A stretch of 64,000 bases of DNA, from assembly GCA_964016885.1 (NCBI GenBank), contig OZ024755.1, forward strand, positions 37,386,001 to 37,450,000, in the 5' to 3' direction. The position numbers and the translations under genes are program-made. Numbering within the stretch: position 1 is the stretch's first letter; the number at the start of each line of letters is the position of its first letter. Positions 7,849 through 55,215 of this stretch are shown piece after piece. The DNA comes from Eledone cirrhosa (Eukaryota). The notes under the pieces are model-generated. The model searched no databases, had not been told where the DNA came from, and saw nothing but the letters and a program-made list of their open reading frames with translations.

Positions 7849-8038
7849 TGGTGAACTAACTGTTGTGTAACCACTTTTACCTAACTCGTCCCATGGACTG
7901 AGTGCTCTACCACTACGGATATTACCTTCCAGTGTTCTACCACTATATATATATATATATATACATATATTATATATATATAATATATATATATATGTAT
8001 ATATATATACATATATATATGGATGGAAGGAGATGGGT

Positions 8039-8109
8039 GATGTGTTGGTGTAATGGTAGCACAGTGGTCTGTATAACCAAAGATGTGGGTTCGACTCCCA
8101 TGTACGTCA
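8039..8109 (+). tRNA. tRNA-like cloverleaf (pseudogene or isolated SINE head)
   Basis: Acceptor GATGTGT/GTACGTC (G-U rich), D loop TAATGGTAG, TGGT-CTGTATA-ACCA, T arm GTGGG-TTCGACT-CCCAT, T5 run ~10 nt downstream. Confidence 0.45.
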
Positions 8110-8243
8110 ATACTCATCTTTTTCCATTTATCTGAGGGTTCTAAACTCCATTATCAGGCTAAAATTTCTTTAGTCAAAAATACGGTGAAAGCTATTCTAT
8201 TTTCTAATTTCAAACCTGCTCACTGTTTAAAAACATACTTACT

Positions 8244-13210: not shown

Positions 13211-13657
13211 TCAGGTGATAGTGTGAAAACTAGTAACAGTTAAACTGAACCACGCAAGGTTCGGGTGATGGTGTGAAAATTAGTTACAGTTAAACTGAAA
13301 CACCCAAAGTTCAATTGATGGTGTTAAAATTAGTTACAGTTAAACTGAACCACCCAAGATTCAGGTGATAGTGTTCAAATTAATAACAGGTAAATTGAAC
13401 CATCCAAGGTTCGGGTGATGGTGTGAAAATTAGTTACAGTTAAACTGAAACACCCAAGGCTCAGTTGATGGTGTTAAAATTAGTAACAGTTAAATTGAAC
13501 CACCCAAAGTTCAATTGATGGTGTTAAAATTAGTTACAGTTAAACTGAACAACCCAAGGCTCAGTTGATGATGTGAAAATTCGTAACAGTTAAACTGAAT
13601 CACCCAAGGTTCAATTGATGGTGTTAACATTAGTGACAGTTAAACTGAACCACCCAA
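13211..13657. repeat. 50-bp minisatellite, ~9 copies
   Basis: Unit TCA(G/A)(G/T)TGATGGTGT(G/T)AAAATTAGT(A/T)ACAGTTAAACTGAACCACCCAAGGT at exact 50 bp period. Confidence 0.95.
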
Positions 13658-26186: not shown

Positions 26187-26557
26187 CTCACGTATACATA
26201 CACGCACGTTCATACATATCCAAAATGTGAAAGTTGTTTGAGTAATAAGGTCTTATAGACAGATACAGAAATGTTCTTTAAATGACACCTGGTAGGTAGA
26301 AAGTGTTAGATTGTGGTAATCAACATACCTACATCTCGTGAGCACAAAATATGATTGGGAAACTCATAGCAATTATGGAAACTAAAAGAATTCATCAAAC
26401 AGTCTTTCTTCCCAACGTTGACTTAGAACACTTTAAATTTCAAGCAACACCACTTATAATGGATATACGCCCTAATATTGGCTACTGCTGTCTCCGCGCT
26501 ATATCATTCTCGACATAAGATATTGTAGCAAAATATGTACATGGTATTGATTGCTTA

Positions 26558-26710
26558 AAGCGACGAATTATCAGAGTCATTAGAACGTTTGTAGAATGCT
26601 TTGTGGTATTCATTCCGGCTCTGCGAGTTCAAATCCCACCGAGGTCACCTTTGCATAATATCCTTTTTAAGTCGATAAAAAAGTACCAGTCTAGTACTGG
26701 AGTCGATTCT
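26558..26710 (+). mobile_element. Diverged tRNA-derived SINE
   Basis: GAGTTCAAATCCCACCGAGGTC B-box; GTCGATAAAAAGTACCAG core. Confidence 0.65.
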
Positions 26711-27010
26711 TTTTCTATATCTCTTTTTCATGTCCTCTCTCTCAATCTTTCTCTGGAAGAACTCTGCTCTGTTGAGACCGGGAGAGGAATGGGCTTCGCC
26801 AGGCTTAAAATGCCCAGGAAACGCCGTATGCCCCTAACAACTCCGTCGGGAGTTATGGGACTATAGCATACCATACCATTGATTACTTAATCGTGTATCT
26901 AGACCAGTAAGTTGGCCTTGCAACAGTTTACAAACATACATCTCTAATTTCAATATTCAGAAAATATCGCAGAAGAAAATGAAATTTTAGTTTTATTTTA
27001 CTTTCAATAT

Positions 27011-46327: not shown

Positions 46328-46852
46328 TAAACTATAAAAATAAAATAACAATTGAAATCCCCAATAGGGGGAACGTTACTGCAGGGTTGTTTTACACCCC
46401 GTGGATAGAACAACCCTCAACACCAGGAACACGTGTTGTAGGTGTTCCCGTCTTCCCTCTGTTTGTCTTCCTCAACAGATAAAATGATAGATAGATAGGT
46501 AGAAAAATAGATAGATAAATAGATAGATATATATGGATGGATGCACTGAACCAAATTATTACAATGTTAATTTATCGAAGTGTATGATAGTGCCCAAATA
46601 CGAATGAATGAATGAAATGTGAGTGAGAGTCAGTTCTCTAAGAGTATGCCTGTCTCAAGTAAACAAACGGAAATAATCTCCTTGAAACATGTCCCAGAAA
46701 GATAATATGTAATATTTATTAATGTTTACCTGGCATGACATCTAGGTGTTTCGATTCAACACCTGTTAAACTCAAAGTAGTTATTCCTCTAGACATATAT
46801 TATATAGCCATTGTTAATGTGATGGGTCAGTAGAGCCTTGTATTAAATGGAC

Positions 46853-49800
46853 AGGCGGCGAATTGGCTGAGTCGTTAGAAAGTCGGATAGAATGGTAGAG
46901 TGGTTAGAACGTCGGATAGAATGGTAGAGTGGTTAGAACGTCAGATAGAATGGTAGAGTTGTTAGAACGTAGATAGAATGGTAGTGTGGTTAGAACGTCA
47001 GATAGAATGGTAGAGTGGTTAGAACGTCAGATAGAATGGTAGAGTGGTTAGAACGTCAGAGAGAATGGTAGAGTGGTTAGAACGTCAGATAGAATGGTAG
47101 AGTTGTTAGAACGTAGATAGAATGGTAGAGTTGTTAGAACGTAGATAGAATGGTAGAGTGGTTAGAACGTCGGATAGAATGGTAGAGTGGTTAGAACGTC
47201 GGATAGAATGGTAGTGTGGTTAGAACGTCAGATAGAATGGTAGGGTGGTTAGGACGTAGATAGAATGGTAAAGTGGTTAGAACGTCAGATAGAATGACAG
47301 AGTGGTTAGAACGTCAGATAGAATGGTAGAGTGGTTAGAACGTAGATAGCATGGCAGAGTGGTTAGAACGTCAGATAGAATGGTAGTGTGGTTATAACGT
47401 AGATAGAATGGTAGAGTGGTTAGAACTAGATAGAATGGTAGAGTGGTTAGAACGTCAGATAGAATGGTAGAGTGGTTATAACGTAGATAGAATGGTAGAG
47501 TGGTTAGAACTAGATAGCATGGCAGAGTGGTTAGAACGTAGATAGAATGGTAAAGTGGTTAGAACGTCAGATAGAATGGTAGAGTGGTTAGAACGTCAGA
47601 TAGAATGGTAGAGTTGTTAGAACGTAGATAGAATGGTAGTGTGGTTAGAACGTCAGATAGAATGGTAGAGTGGTTAGAACGTCAGATAGAATGGTAAAGT
47701 GGTTAGAACGTCAGATAGAATGGTAGAGTGATTAGAACGTCGGATAGAATGGTAGAGTGGTTAGAGCGTCGGATAGAATGGTAGTGTGGTTAGAACGTCA
47801 GATAGAATGACAGAGTGGTTAGAACGTCAGATAGAATGGTAGAGTGGTTAGAACGTAGATAGCATGGCAGAGTGGTGAGAACGTCAGATAGAATGGTAGA
47901 GTGGTTATAACGTAGATAGAATGGTAGAGTGGTTAGAACTAGATAGAATGGTAGAGTGGTTAGAACGTAGATAGAATGGTAGAGTGGTTAGAACGTCAGA
48001 TAGAATGGTAGAGTGGTTATAACGTAGATAGAATGGTAGAGTGGTTAGAACTAGATAGCATGGCAGAGTGGTTAGAACGTAGATAGAATGGTAGAGTGGT
48101 TAGAACGTAGATAGAATGGTAAAGTGGTTAGAACGCCAGATAGAATGGTAGAGTGGTTAGAACGTCAGATAGAATGGTAGAGTGGTTAGAACGTCAGACA
48201 GAATGGTAGTGTGGTTAGAACGTAGATAGAATGGCAGAGTGGTTAGAACGTAGATAGAATGGTAAAGTGGTTAGAAGGTCGGATAGAATGGCAGAGTGGT
48301 TAGAACGTCGGATAGAATGGTAGAGTGGTTAGAACGTCAGATAGAATGGTAGAGTGGTTAGAACGTCAAATAGAATGGTAGAGTGGTTAGAACGTCAGAT
48401 AGAATGACAGAGTGGTTAGAACGTCAGATAGAATGGTAGAGTGCTTAGAACGTAGATAGCATGGCAGAGTGGTTAGAACGTCAGATAGAATGGTAGAGTG
48501 GTTATAACGTAGATAGAATGGTAGAGTGGTTAGAACTAGATAGCATGGCAGAGTGGTTAGAACGTAGATAGAATGGTAGAGTGGTTAGAACGTAGATAGA
48601 ATGGTAGAGTGGTTAGAACGTCAGATAGCATGGCAGAGTGGTTAGAACGTAAATAGAATGGTAGAGTGGTTAGAACGTCAGACAGAATGGTAGTGTGGTT
48701 AGAACGTAGATAGAATGGTAGTGTGGTTAGAAGGTCGGATAGAATGGCAGAGTGGTTAGAACGTCGGATAGAATGGTAGAGTGGTTAGAACGTCAGATAG
48801 AATGGTAGAGTGGTTAGAACGTCAGATAGAATGACAGAGTGGTTAGAACGTCAGATAGAATGGTAGAGTGGTTAGAACGTAGATAGCATGGCAGAGTGGT
48901 TAGAACGTCAGATAGAATGGTAGAGTGGTTAGAACGTAAATAGAATGGTAGAGTGGTTAGAACGTAGATAGAATGGTAAAGTGGTTAGAACGTCAGATAG
49001 AATGGTAGAGTGGTTAGAACGTCAGATAGAATGGTAGAGTTGTTAGAACGTCAGACAGAATGGTAGTGTGGTTAGAACGTAGATAGAATGGTAGTGTGGT
49101 TAGAAGGTCGGATAGAATGGTAGAGTGGTTAGAACGTCAGATAGAATGGTAGAGTGGTTAGAACGTCAAATAGAATGGTAGAGTGGTTAGAACGTCAGAT
49201 AGAATGACAGAGTGGTTAGAACGTCAGATAGAATGGTAGAGTGGTTAGAACGTAGATAGCATGGCAGAGTGATTAGAACGTCAGATAGAATGGTAGTGTG
49301 GTTATAACGTAGATAGAATGGTAGAGTGGTTAGAACTAGATAGCATGGCAGAGTGGTTAGAACGTAGATAGAATGGTAGAGTGGTTAGAACGTAGATAGA
49401 ATGGTAGAGTGGTTAGAACGTCAGATAGCATGGCAGAGTGGTTAGAACGTAAATAGAATGGTAGAGTGGTTAGAACGTAGATAGAATGGTAAAGTGGTTA
49501 GAACGTCAGATAGAATGGTAAAGTGGTTAGAACGTCAGATAGAATGGTAGAGTGGTTAGAACGTCAGATAGAATGGTAGTGTGGTTAGAACGTAGATAGA
49601 ATGGTAGTGTGGTTAGAAGGTCGGATAGAATGGCAGAGTGGTTAGAACGTCGGATAGAATGGTAGAGTGGTTAGAACGTCAGAGAGAATGGTAGAGTGGT
49701 TAGAACGTCAGATAGAATGGTAGAGTGGTTAGAACGTCAGATAGAATGGTAGAGTGGTTAGAACGTCAGATAGAATGGTAGAGTGGTTATAACGTCAGAT

Positions 49801-51455
49801 AGAATGGTAGAGTGGTTAGAACGTCAGATAGAATGGTAGAGTGGTTATAACGTCAGATAGAATGCTAGAGTGGTTAGAACTAGATAGCCTGGCAGAGTGG
49901 TTAGAACGTAGATAGAATGGTAGAGTGGTTAGAACGTAGATAGAATGGTAAAGTGGTTAGAACGTCGGATAGAATGGTAGAGTGGTTAGAACGTCAGATA
50001 GAATGGTAGAGTGGTTAGAACGTCAGACAGAATGGTAGTGTGGTTAGAACGTAGATAGAATGGTAGAGTGGTTAGAACTAGATAGCATGGCAGAATGGTT
50101 ACAGCGTAGATAGAATGGTAGAGTGGTTAGAACGTAGATAGAATGGTAGAGTGGTTAGAAGGTCGGATAGAATGGCAGAGTGGTTAGAACGTCAGATAGA
50201 ATGGTAGAGTGGTTAGAACGTCAGATAGAATGGTAGAGTGGTTAGAACGTCAGATAGAATTGTAGTGTGGTTAGAACGTAGATAGAATGGCAGAGTGGTT
50301 AGAACGTAGATAGAATGGTAGGGTGGTTAGAAGGTCGGATAGAATGGCAGAGTGGTTAGAACGTCGGATAGAATGGTATAGTGGTTAGAACGTCAGATAG
50401 AATGGTAGAGTGGTTAGAACGTCAGATAGAATGGTAGAGTGGTTAGAACGTCAAATAGAATGGTAGAGTGGTTAGAACGTCAGATAGAATGGTAGAGTGG
50501 TTAGAACGTCAGATAGAATGGCAGAGTGGTTAGAACGTCGGATAGAATGGTAGAGTGGTTAGAACGTCAGATAGAATGGTAGAGTGGTTAGAACGTCAGA
50601 TAGAATGGTAGAGTGGTTAGAACGTCAGATAGAATGGTAGAGTGGTTAGAACGTCAAATAGAATGGTAGAGTGGTTAGAACGTCAGATAGAATGGTAGTG
50701 TGGTTAGAACGTCAGATAGAATGGTAGAGTGGTTAGAACGTCAGCTAGAATGGTAGAGTGGTTATAACGTCAGATAGAATGGTAGAGTGGTTAGAACGTC
50801 ACATAGAATGGTAGAGTGGTTAGAACGTCTGATAGAATGGTAGAGTGGTTATAACGTCAGATAGAATGGTAGAGTGGTTAGAACGTCACATAGAATGGTA
50901 GAGTGGTTAGAACGTCAGATAGAATGGTAGAGTGGTTAGAACGTCAGATAGAACGGTAGAGTGGTTAGAACGTCAGATAGAATGGTAGAGTGGTTAGAAC
51001 GTCAGATAGAACGGTAAAGTGGTTAGAACGTCAGATAGAACGGTAGAGTGGTTAGAACGTCAGATAGAATGGTAGAGTGGTTAGAACGTCAAATAGAATG
51101 GTAGAGTGGTTAGAACGTCAGATAGAATGGTAGAGTGGTTAGAACGTCAGATAGAACGGTAGAGTGGTTAGAACGTCAGATAGAATGGTAGAGTGGTTAG
51201 AACGTCAGATAGAACGGTAAAGTGGTTAGAACGTCAGATAGAACGGTAGAGTGGTTAGAACGTCAGATAGAACGGTAGAGTGGTTAGAACGTCAGATAGA
51301 ATGGTAGAGTGGTTAGAACGTCAGATAGAACGGTAGAGTGGTTAGAACGTCAGATAGAATGCTTTACGGTATTCATCCCGGCTCTCTCCTCTCTGAGTTC
51401 AAATCCCTCCGAGGTCAACTTTGCCTTTCATCCTTTCGATGTCGATATATAAAGT
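46853..51455 (+). mobile_element. tRNA-derived SINE with massively expanded A-box segment
   Basis: SINE start AGGCGGCGAATTGGCTGAGTCGTTAG; array; resumes ATGCTTTACGGTATT..GAGTTCAAATCCC..GAGGTCAACTTTGCCTTTCATCC. Confidence 0.85.
46863..51361 (+). repeat. 27-29 bp minisatellite, roughly 155 units
   Basis: Unit ATGGTAGAGTGGTTAGAACGTCAGATAGA; copy number estimated as length divided by period. Confidence 0.97.
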
Positions 51456-51479
51456 GCTAATCTACAGGGTCTAAAGAAT

Positions 51480-51667
51480 TTGGTGAGAGGGAAAAGTCGA
51501 TTAAATCACCCCCAGTACATTACTGGTACTTTATTTTATCGACCCCGTAAGGATGATAGGTAAAGTTAACCTCGGAGGGATTTGAACTCAGAACGTAAAG
51601 GGACGTAACTGTATGCTGCAAAGCATGGTGTCCGACGCTCTACCGATACTGCTAATCCAGCGCCTTC
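51480..51667 (-). mobile_element. Main-family SINE
   Basis: Consensus match. Confidence 0.85.
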
Positions 51668-52348: not shown

Positions 52349-52514
52349 CTAGACCACCCATGACCCGTTGGGTCATGTTCACTTAAAAATAATTTTTAAA
52401 TAATTAAAATATACATAAAATGTATATAATGTAAAATGACATTGTAAAGCCAATATATATATATACGTGTATGCATGTGTATATGTACGTGTATATATAT
52501 ATATGTGTGTGTGG

Positions 52515-55215
52515 AGAACCATTTCTTTTGGCAAAATAATTTCCTCATTTTCAGTTTTTTTATCTTATCTTCTTCAATATCCAATAGGAACTGTGAATAG
52601 TCTCCTGCTCCCCCACCCAATCGCATGTTTGTCTTCAAGTGAAATCTTTTGAAGCTTCGCCATAAGTAGGATTTTTTAACGCAGGCATATTCAACGTCCG
52701 CTTCATTTCCCCTTTTTACTACCGGAAGAAGCTGATGGAAATCGCCACAGCAAATTGTCAAAATTCCACCGAATGCCTCATTGTTGTCGCATATGTCACG
52801 CAGAGTGAGGTCAACAGCTTCGAAGCTTTCACTCCGAATCATGGGACACTCATCCCAAACAATCAGCCTTGTATGCTGGAAGAGATTTGCCGTCTTTGAG
52901 TTTTTATCAATGTTGCACAGACCCTTTTCTTTCACTACTATCGGTATTTTGAACCTAGAATGGGCTGTTCTTCCACCAGGCATCAGTGTTGCGGCAATGC
53001 CAGATGACGCAACAGCAATAGCAACAGCTTCTGATGGACCGATATATCTTCCTGTTAAATACTGTATTACCTCATCTTCCCTGTTCACTCCAAACATTGC
53101 CTGATCACTGCCCTTCATGGTATATTTGATAACGTATTTGATCGATTTCACGGAAGAGCACATCTCTACGTTTAGGTGGCAGTTGAACAGTTTTAATAGT
53201 TTCATATTGTAGGGAGCCACCCATTCCGAAGTTATATTTCGGCTTCCCCTTCCTTCTTGGTGTCCCTCAAATCCTCCCATTCCTGGAGACCATCTTCTGT
53301 ACACAAGGTAAGAGTCCTCTCCACACAATGTATATTCACTGAAAGGCTTAAGGTACCGCTTACTGCACGTTCCATCTTTCCAACACGGCGAATTGTTAGA
53401 GCAATTCGGATCGTGGATCCTGTGCTTCAGCACCAATTCATGACCCTCTGGATCTTTGTTTGGATCTGGTATTTCGGCTTGAACAAATTTATCGTATTCC
53501 TGCAGTCTGGGCTTGGAGGCTTCACTGGGCCATAGCAAACAGTGCACATGAGGAATACCTCGCTTTTGACATTCGACTGTCAGCACGTAAGCAATGCACG
53601 TGCCAAATAGGTCATCTACTCCAGTAAGATACTTTCTTAACAGTTTCCGCTTCAGGTCAAATACTCTGGCAATTAAATCTGGCCTGTCATGTGGCTTCTG
53701 ATTCAGGAATAGGTTTTGCCGGATTTCGGGCCAGTTTGGATTGCATGTCATTGTGATGAAGAACGAAGGATTGCCGTACTTCCGTATGTACATCATGGCA
53801 TCCTAGCATCGCTCCATCATATATCTCGGTCCACCGACAAATGTGGAAGAGAGTATGATTCGCCTGCCAATATTGCGAAAATCGTCATCATTCAATGCGT
53901 CAGTAAGGCCCTTGTATGTTGTAGATCACAATGATGTTTGATTCATTCGGATGTATTGCAGTCTATCTCCTTCAATCTTCGCAGCCATGTCAACCAAATA
54001 TTGCTGAAATAAACGACCGCCTCTGAGAAATTGGTTGAATTCGATAGGCATAGTAGCACATTGGCGTCAACTTCTTGTTGTTGCTCTTTAACAGCTCATG
54101 ATGCCATCCGTCATCGCCAAAAGGAAAAATTAGAACATACTGCAAACTGTCATAGGACCGATGGGACTGAGATTATTTGCAACTGTCCGCCTTTTTCTTT
54201 CAACACAGTGTGCAGTGCTTTTGCTTGAAGTTCGGTGCTGTTTTGTATAATAACGGCAACTTCGTTTGCAGTTTGTGCATTGAATCTTCTCTCATGTTCC
54301 ATTGCTGGTCTCCTATCAGGATCAATAATAATCGAAGCTTCGGGAATATTTTTAATTTGTTCTTTTGCCATTCGAAATGAAGCAACGTAAGGGTTATATT
54401 GTCTGAGTATTATTTCCAATAATTTAACTATGTCGCGCTGAATGTCATCGTTATGGAGTATCCCGATCCTCAAATCAACACTATCCTGAGGATCCAAGAA
54501 GTAAATTTGAAGAAATTGGGGTTGTTCGTTGGGATTAGGGGTTAAGGAACTGATGTAATGGTGAATTTGACCATGAATAGCGATAGAAGGATTCCATCCA
54601 CTCCTTGAGGAACGAACTTCTTCGGCCCCAAAAGATGTCATTTGGAACAGGCAGTTATATTGTCTGAGATCCTTCCTGAACTCGTTTGCCCTAGGTTGAT
54701 CAGTACTAAATAAACTGTGAAGTTCCTGGGGTAAAGGCTGCAGATTCCCCAACCTGACTTTTCCATTCATACAGCAAAAGTTAGCAGTTTCTCCATGAAA
54801 AAGCATTGCATGACAACAGACAGATCTTATTCATCCGTCCAACATCAGCAGAGAGGTCACGTCGTTGAACTGTCCTTGCTCTATCCCTAATGGTTTGTTG
54901 GCAAAGACGCTCAGTTCTCCGAGCGTCCGATTCATGATCTCTCGTGCTTCTATCTCTTTCCCTCTGTTCCGCCAGGCGCGCAGCTCTCCGACCATCCGAT
55001 TCATGATCTCTCCTGCTTCTGTCTCTTTCCCTCTGTTCCGCTAGATGCGCAGCCCTTGCTTTATCAGTCTCATCGATCCTTCTATTCGCATGCCTGTCCC
55101 GATCTTGTTGGCGTTGACCACTATCTTGCTCACCTTCTTCGGCTCTCCTTAGCCGTGCTTTCTTTCCACTATCGATAGACCAACCAGATGTTTTCTTTCT
55201 TCCTCGTCGAGGCAT
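52515..55215 (-). pseudogene. Helitron RepHel (HUH Rep plus Pif1-like helicase), disrupted
   Basis: Zn motif CC..GK; FITMTCNPNW; EC(F)QKRGIPHVH; KYVIKYTMKG; ASSGIAA..GGRTAHSRFKIP; WDECPM; FGG..GDFHQLLPV; LKTNMR; frameshifts, a stop and deletions. Confidence 0.95.

Follow-up and report, generated by a model that had tools for sequence, protein, structure and literature searches.

The window analysed here is a stretch of 64,000 nucleotides (C15:37386001-37450000) of a 3.0-Gb genome; its repeat content is presumably octopus-like, as is, we assume, the SINE with which this account is concerned. At 46853-51464, the head of one copy of this SINE is repeated in tandem (Table 1). The initial annotation had described an approximately 155-fold array inside a single SINE, and this is borne out: TRF reports a period of 29 and 156.9 copies at 46869-51361, and splitting at the A box gives 157 units at 46864-51359, with the SINE's own head unit counted in. 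It had also seen the SINE break off and resume in register, and here too the alignment agrees, with head (46853-46892) and tail (51360-51464) matching the unexpanded copy L046 at 93% and 85%, respectively, across a gapless joint. Since both are in register with that single copy, the two flanks are parts of one SINE. The element ends at about 51464, so that the ~190-bp 3′ part and the tail of its siblings are missing, and an array SINE without this 3′ end would presumably be unable to act as a master.

Table 1. Features of the window (position 1 is its first letter)
Feature	Position	Strand	Remarks
SINE 5′ leader GGCGGCGAAT, start of the element	46854..46863	+	from sequence; siblings share this start, and the DNA before it is unrelated
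Original head unit	46864..46892	+	A-box-like 11-mer; ancestral C10 and G22 kept
156 further tandem units, each 27-29 bp	46893..51359	+	junction GATAGAA/TGG
SINE body, resuming in register	51360..51464	+	85% to L046 positions 14-145, nothing beyond
B box GAGTTCAAATCC	51395..51406	+	starts 64 bases downstream of where the last unit begins; same spacing in unexpanded copies
Central core	51411..51455	+	common to an abundant sister SINE family
Unexpanded full-length copy of the parent subfamily	26559..26877	+	13-bp target-site duplication with one mismatch (26546-26558, 26878-26890; by eye)
Inverted sister-family SINE, tail-to-tail with the array SINE	51481..51664	-	contains the first plus-strand T4 terminator (51534)
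Broken Helitron Rep/helicase	52399-54830	-	~700 bp past the inverted SINE; Helitron_like_N and PIF1 domains in a 468-aa frame (52399-53802)
tRNA-Tyr(GTA)	8038-8110	+	ARAGORN and Rfam
Unrelated 50-bp tandem repeat	13211-13657		~9 copies; 150-bp higher period

Along the array, about 45 unit variants are arranged in ordered zones. The commonest unit, TGGTAGAGTGGTTAGAACGTCAGATAGAA, has 37 exact copies at the locus; short units are confined to the first three quarters, and units starting with C to the last 14, where 8 of the 14, including the one adjacent to the B box, have this C instead of the A-box T. The motif TGG(T/C)AGAGTGG, attributed to every unit, is exact in only 105 of the 157. The C form, said to make a better A box, is rare in its exact form (19 of 157 units), and C at unit position 4 is ancestral in the family rather than gained; the common T form has one mismatch to TRGCNNAGYGG, the same as the head unit. 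These box calls rely on A-box and B-box consensus sequences that we take to be the accepted ones. The reported lack of a plus-strand T4 terminator is correct for the whole of 46853-51400, and it follows from the 29-mer itself, which contains none. Two other possibilities were set aside. A coding role was rejected, as no frame in the array is open beyond 93 codons, and so was a structured RNA or a hairpin-driven expansion: there is no Rfam match, and a stretch of four units folds less well than shuffled versions of it, on either strand (z +1.7 and +1.4).

The parent subfamily is ~320 bp long and consists of a leader, the A and B boxes, a core shared with the commoner sister family, a 3′ part of its own and a CATA-type tail. 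The core we take to be Deu/Nin-like; its short motifs were not found in the text-form supplements of four papers (all files but one in two of them). The repeat unit corresponds to positions 11-39 of the subfamily, and the ancestral state of the subfamily head is C at unit positions 4 and 10 and G at 22. Dispersed copies share a common 5′ end, A and B boxes, a simple-repeat tail and target-site duplications, all features of tRNA-derived SINEs; a tRNA homology of the head was not found by Rfam in one single copy or in the copies of the window. Single-unit heads with exact flanking motifs number at least 844 in the genome, and 2085 matches lie within one mismatch, array ends included. As for the neighbourhood, the array SINE and the copy at 51481-51664 form an inverted pair of roughly 75% identity, and the sister family has at least 15 copies or fragments in the window, mostly on the minus strand.

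Expansion of the same unit across the genome

Is this locus unique? It is not, because the 29-bp unit is expanded at many other loci. An array query returned 223 genome matches on many contigs, and all 20 stretches examined hold arrays, mostly with a SINE head before, a body behind and unrelated flanks. A pattern made of a fixed junction and body start, with a free 19-base interior, then served to collect arrays; its 97 matches, among which the window's own array does not figure, are all arrays of two or more units, with a median of 17. Independent expansions of the same SINE segment, with the same unit and junction, are therefore found at no fewer than 97 other loci. Six or more units are present in 72 of these arrays, and the unit count is a lower bound in 9 of the 97 (L311 has 2 units). 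Lengths range from 2 to >400 units, the latter figure being reached twice on C17, and at C1:21.4 Mb there are 21 pure-array stretches across at least 45 kb, if continuity between them is assumed. Over all the loci examined, 134 distinct array starts were counted, some of them in segmental duplicates, and 102 have a canonical SINE head. The terminal units run into the SINE ends on both sides here, and do so in most loci.

How often a copy is expanded can be estimated from copies picked by their body, without regard to the head. The sample combined 30 of 280 matches from one motif search with all 88 from another, and of its 108 distinct copies, 2 are duplicated, 76 have one unit and 30 lack a recognisable head, which gives an unbiased rate of ~2%.

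The 29-base back-joint also occurs in at least four runs, raw reads included, with labels for three organisms (A, B and C); X1 may be the source sample. In organism B, the 5′ flank of the array (46606-46752) shows 12 differences and one gap, i.e., ~8% divergence. From the presence of the back-joint under these labels and the divergence of this flank, the array family is likely older than the species.

Some loci have further peculiarities. Two copies with head arrays, L027 (C17 ~7.445 Mb) and L037 (C22 ~3.36 Mb), also carry a second tandem repeat derived from their own 3′ part, with units of ~67 bp and ~38 bp, respectively, which points to locus-level instability. At L149, L169 and L182, an array copy has a subfamily copy in the opposite orientation within ~3 kb.

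Several observations bear on whether the arrays were inserted as such or grew where they stand. Array copies are of the same age as single ones, their bodies diverging from the majority sequence by 12.6% (n=76) and those of single copies by 13.4% (n=47), and no body column that separates arrays from singles was found (lowest p 0.03 among ~60 columns). Both body subtypes are represented among the 97 arrays (A 59, B 36, unclear 2). Array copies thus do not form a subfamily with diagnostic body variants, unlike a VNTR-carrying mobile element; in an SVA-like element, the array travels with the mobile element. Where the head is intact, a 10-14 bp target-site duplication encloses head and tail in 8 of 68 arrays, and a locus-specific change is common to the head unit and most later units in 18 of 68. 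L334, for instance, shares three head-private changes through its array, L325 is a further example, and L259, a body-picked copy, carries two private changes in each of its two units. Many of these shared changes lie at CpG sites, however, and could be parallel.

The arrays are also unevenly placed. On C1-C4, 20 of 21 lie within 60 Mb of an end, as against 33 of 96 body-picked copies (p=2e-7), and the shortest, of five units or fewer, do so in 6 of 6 cases (p=0.002); contig ends are here taken as chromosome ends, and the bias is broadly distal rather than strictly subtelomeric. On C15, the window's array lies 7.6 Mb from the contig end. Taking recombination to be high near chromosome ends, we infer that the arrays expanded in place, after insertion, in regions where it is high. 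A neutral SINE-derived minisatellite family, expanded in place, is very probably what these loci represent. The birth of a satellite from a SINE, which the initial annotation had proposed for one locus, is supported and turns out to be more general, extending to at least 97 loci.

One junction and its possible origins

A more difficult question is why the same junction recurs. The perfect GAAT microhomology in the head would be expected to give a 30-bp junction; this has one match, against 97 arrays with the 29-bp junction, and the sole match is a one-base insertion inside a 29-bp array. Arrays with other junctions are rare, namely one of 35 bp (L174) and one of 42 bp (C4:75.2 Mb). The latter region (L073-L083, C4:75.17-75.21 Mb) holds a long array of 42-bp units from the same head, with 29-bp units mixed in at its start.

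Array units differ from ordinary heads at two positions. T at position 4, on the junction side, is present in 52 of 97 last units as against 11 of 100 single heads; for GG at 10-11 (G10), the figures are 30 of 97 arrays and 2 of 100 single heads, as counted by eye with the first 100 of the 844 single heads, all on C1, as control. The position-4 change is polar: of 68 arrays, 12 have T in the first unit and 38 in the second, and between unit 1 and unit 2 the change from C to T was gained 29 times and lost 3 times (n=66). Both variants rise towards contig ends (rho -0.41 and -0.46; n=90, after four arrays on small contigs and three segmental duplicates were dropped). Where two arrays with unrelated flanks lie less than 2 Mb apart, both have or both lack position-4 T in 40 of 45 pairs (p=0.0004 in a test stratified for distance from the end). 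G10, the base that makes the GG of the A box complete, becomes more frequent in longer arrays (rho 0.32). It also creates a telomere-like GGTTAG hexamer. Unit 2 retains private changes of the head in 7 of 23 cases if it has position-4 T, and in 20 of 36 if it has not (p=0.07). The possibility that position-4 T is templated by a downstream TGGTA was discarded, as the two are unlinked (16/31 vs 13/25, p=1).

The account that we favour, tentatively and at somewhat less than an even chance, is that the SINE head arrays combine neutral growth in place with seeding from the junction of an existing array nearby. Damage to a head with one unit, by a break or a stalled fork, would be repaired on an existing array; the repair would copy a short tract across the junction and return to its own locus one unit back, leaving two units. 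From there, slippage and unequal exchange would lengthen the array and make it more homogeneous in regions of high recombination, with no selection for Pol III function. Copying a neighbour's tract at the first duplication fits the junction ratio, the gain at position 4, the trend towards the ends and the agreement between neighbours. The data suggest seeding between arrays without being decisive. The agreement at position 4 falls to 15 of 19 (p=0.06) when only disjoint neighbour pairs are counted, G10 shows no agreement between neighbouring arrays (p=0.29), and the distance from first to second unit does not differ between position-4 T and C arrays (p=0.53). Moreover, the enrichment of G10 and its rise with length find no direct explanation in a neutral model. 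A bolder version, which we regard as rather unlikely, is that of a "contagious" array: resident single-unit heads nearby would be converted through a junction lent during repair, and the best-spreading units would be those with a fuller A-box match.

Alternatively, each array could be fully independent, the nascent strand slipping from GAATG at the unit end to GAATTG at the unit start, always with the 29-bp junction, neutrally and with no exchange between loci. Position-4 T and G10 would then be recurrent misalignment mutations, which make the sub-repeats (TGGT-AGAG, TGGTTAGAA) more alike and so help slippage. The head is indeed prone to slip: six single copies (L191, L197, L198, L219, L248, L254) have all lost the same 12 bp between the unit's two TAGAA motifs, units of 17 and 21 bp occur in arrays, and the independent 35-bp and 42-bp arrays, which count against seeding, demonstrate that a head can duplicate without a donor. 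Head-private changes carried through whole arrays also speak for it, and, in the available text of a study of Alu minisatellites (PMC3389668), short flanking direct repeats are described as a route to them. Yet the better, perfect microhomology, with its 30-bp unit, gave no array against 97, and the agreement of neighbours at position 4 is left unexplained, with no help from the unlinked TGGTA template; we therefore consider it unlikely that slippage acted alone. A retrotransposing master, or several, already with two units (C and then T at position 4), whose daughters inserted with the junction and expanded later, would explain the one junction and the polarity between unit 1 and unit 2 at a stroke, and the canonical heads of most array starts suit it as well. 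What makes such a master decidedly unlikely is that even arrays of 2-5 units avoid the interior of C1-C4, home of two thirds of the subfamily, that arrays with position-4 T are spread over the two body subtypes (27 of 59 in A, 22 of 36 in B), and that no body variant marks the arrays, nor is agreement between neighbours predicted. That the array is an artefact of assembly is scarcely credible: the unit count here is that of the assembly, but the many variants lie in ordered zones, and the back-joint recurs in separate runs, raw reads among them.

A different kind of alternative concerns function. The array could be a working Pol III element, in which many A boxes before one B box provide alternative starts, or a TFIIIC-bound boundary, with better A boxes favoured; judged from the sequence, this is very unlikely. 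In its favour, TRGYNNARYGG is matched without a mismatch by 116 of 157 units, this locus has an intact B box, G10 improves the A-box match and is enriched in arrays, and the first terminator comes only at 51534. On the other hand, the proximal unit is without the A-box T, arrays shift from C to T at position 4, away from TRGCNNAGYGG, and array length is far from constant (2 to >400 units). An intact B-box core is found in 63 of 97 array copies as against 42 of 71 single copies (p=0.52), and in 31 of 45 arrays of at least 20 units; B boxes being no better kept in array copies, there is no sign of purifying selection on them. Retrotransposition of copies from internal starts was considered and rejected, as only ~5 of 134 array starts fall within a unit, two of these at 12-13 bases upstream of an A box, and none has a credible target-site duplication. 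The promoter ladder, TFIIIC binding and insulator that had been suggested for this locus find no support in a B box that is not better kept, a damaged proximal A box and a lack of internal-start copies, although this does not amount to a refutation. With TFIIIC anchored by the B box, only the last few units would be reachable, and it is possible that Pol III uses these. The array as such is likely without promoter function, and the locus is probably an ordinary one as a promoter. In yeast SNR6, according to the available text of PMC9136082, transcription is limited by how far apart the A and B boxes are and by their phase, and seems to be reduced by additional pseudo-A boxes.

Comparison with known systems

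SINE-derived minisatellite families are a known kind. The closest parallel is provided by sSat1-3 of squamates (Vassetzky et al. 2023, PMC10702118), where part of a tRNA-SINE is likewise repeated in tandem at many loci, from a few to hundreds of units, with a dominant unit accompanied by minor variants, greater similarity among the units than among the SINE copies, alternating sub-variants and a subtelomeric preference. By the criteria of an sSat, the present family is one: its unit represents a shorter segment of an abundant SINE, several loci have four or more middle monomers of this same unit, the terminal unit passes into the SINE end and the preference is distal. There are also differences. 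Units of sSat1-3 span ~67-290 nt, which is a descriptive range and not a definition, and 29 nt falls outside it; the commonest snake unit holds box B, whereas here there is box A only; loci with both SINE ends are uncommon in sSat and the rule here, where 102 of 134 starts have the head (the 97 arrays were selected for the body); and the host group is not the squamates (PMC10702118).

Alu minisatellites (Jurka and Gentles 2006; Ahmed and Liang 2012, PMC3389668) and the mouse B1 VNTR family (Bois et al. 1998; PMC9659126) resemble the present arrays, as far as their available texts go, in having short units inside many SINE copies, with short direct repeats at the ends and hotspot segments in the SINE. 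A single junction that dominates ~100 loci, with a polar, junction-side variant common to neighbours, is not described for Alu or B1 in those texts (PMC3389668, PMC9659126). Mollusc SINEs in tandem are also on record from bivalves, but, in the available text of PMC11481361, near-whole SINEs are repeated 2-15 times, and not a 29-bp internal piece as here. No paper on a cephalopod SINE-head minisatellite was found in the openly accessible literature.

The sSat paper leaves the mechanism of spreading open and asks whether such satellites exist outside squamates (PMC10702118). How does one satellite unit reach many loci? This open question is the one addressed here, in a genome that holds all of the stages at once: single heads, arrays of 2-5 units, arrays of hundreds of units and one of at least 45 kb. 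Each array is anchored and dated by its own SINE ends and target sites, with a marked junction, and with such staged, anchored arrays the three routes, namely independent birth, spread from a master and seeding from locus to locus, can be tested directly against each other. If arrays do lend their junction to resident heads, this would be a satellite family that spreads without transposing, by way of thousands of landing sites that its SINE has placed beforehand; and if a fuller A-box match favours the spread, this would tie it to the binding of Pol III factors.
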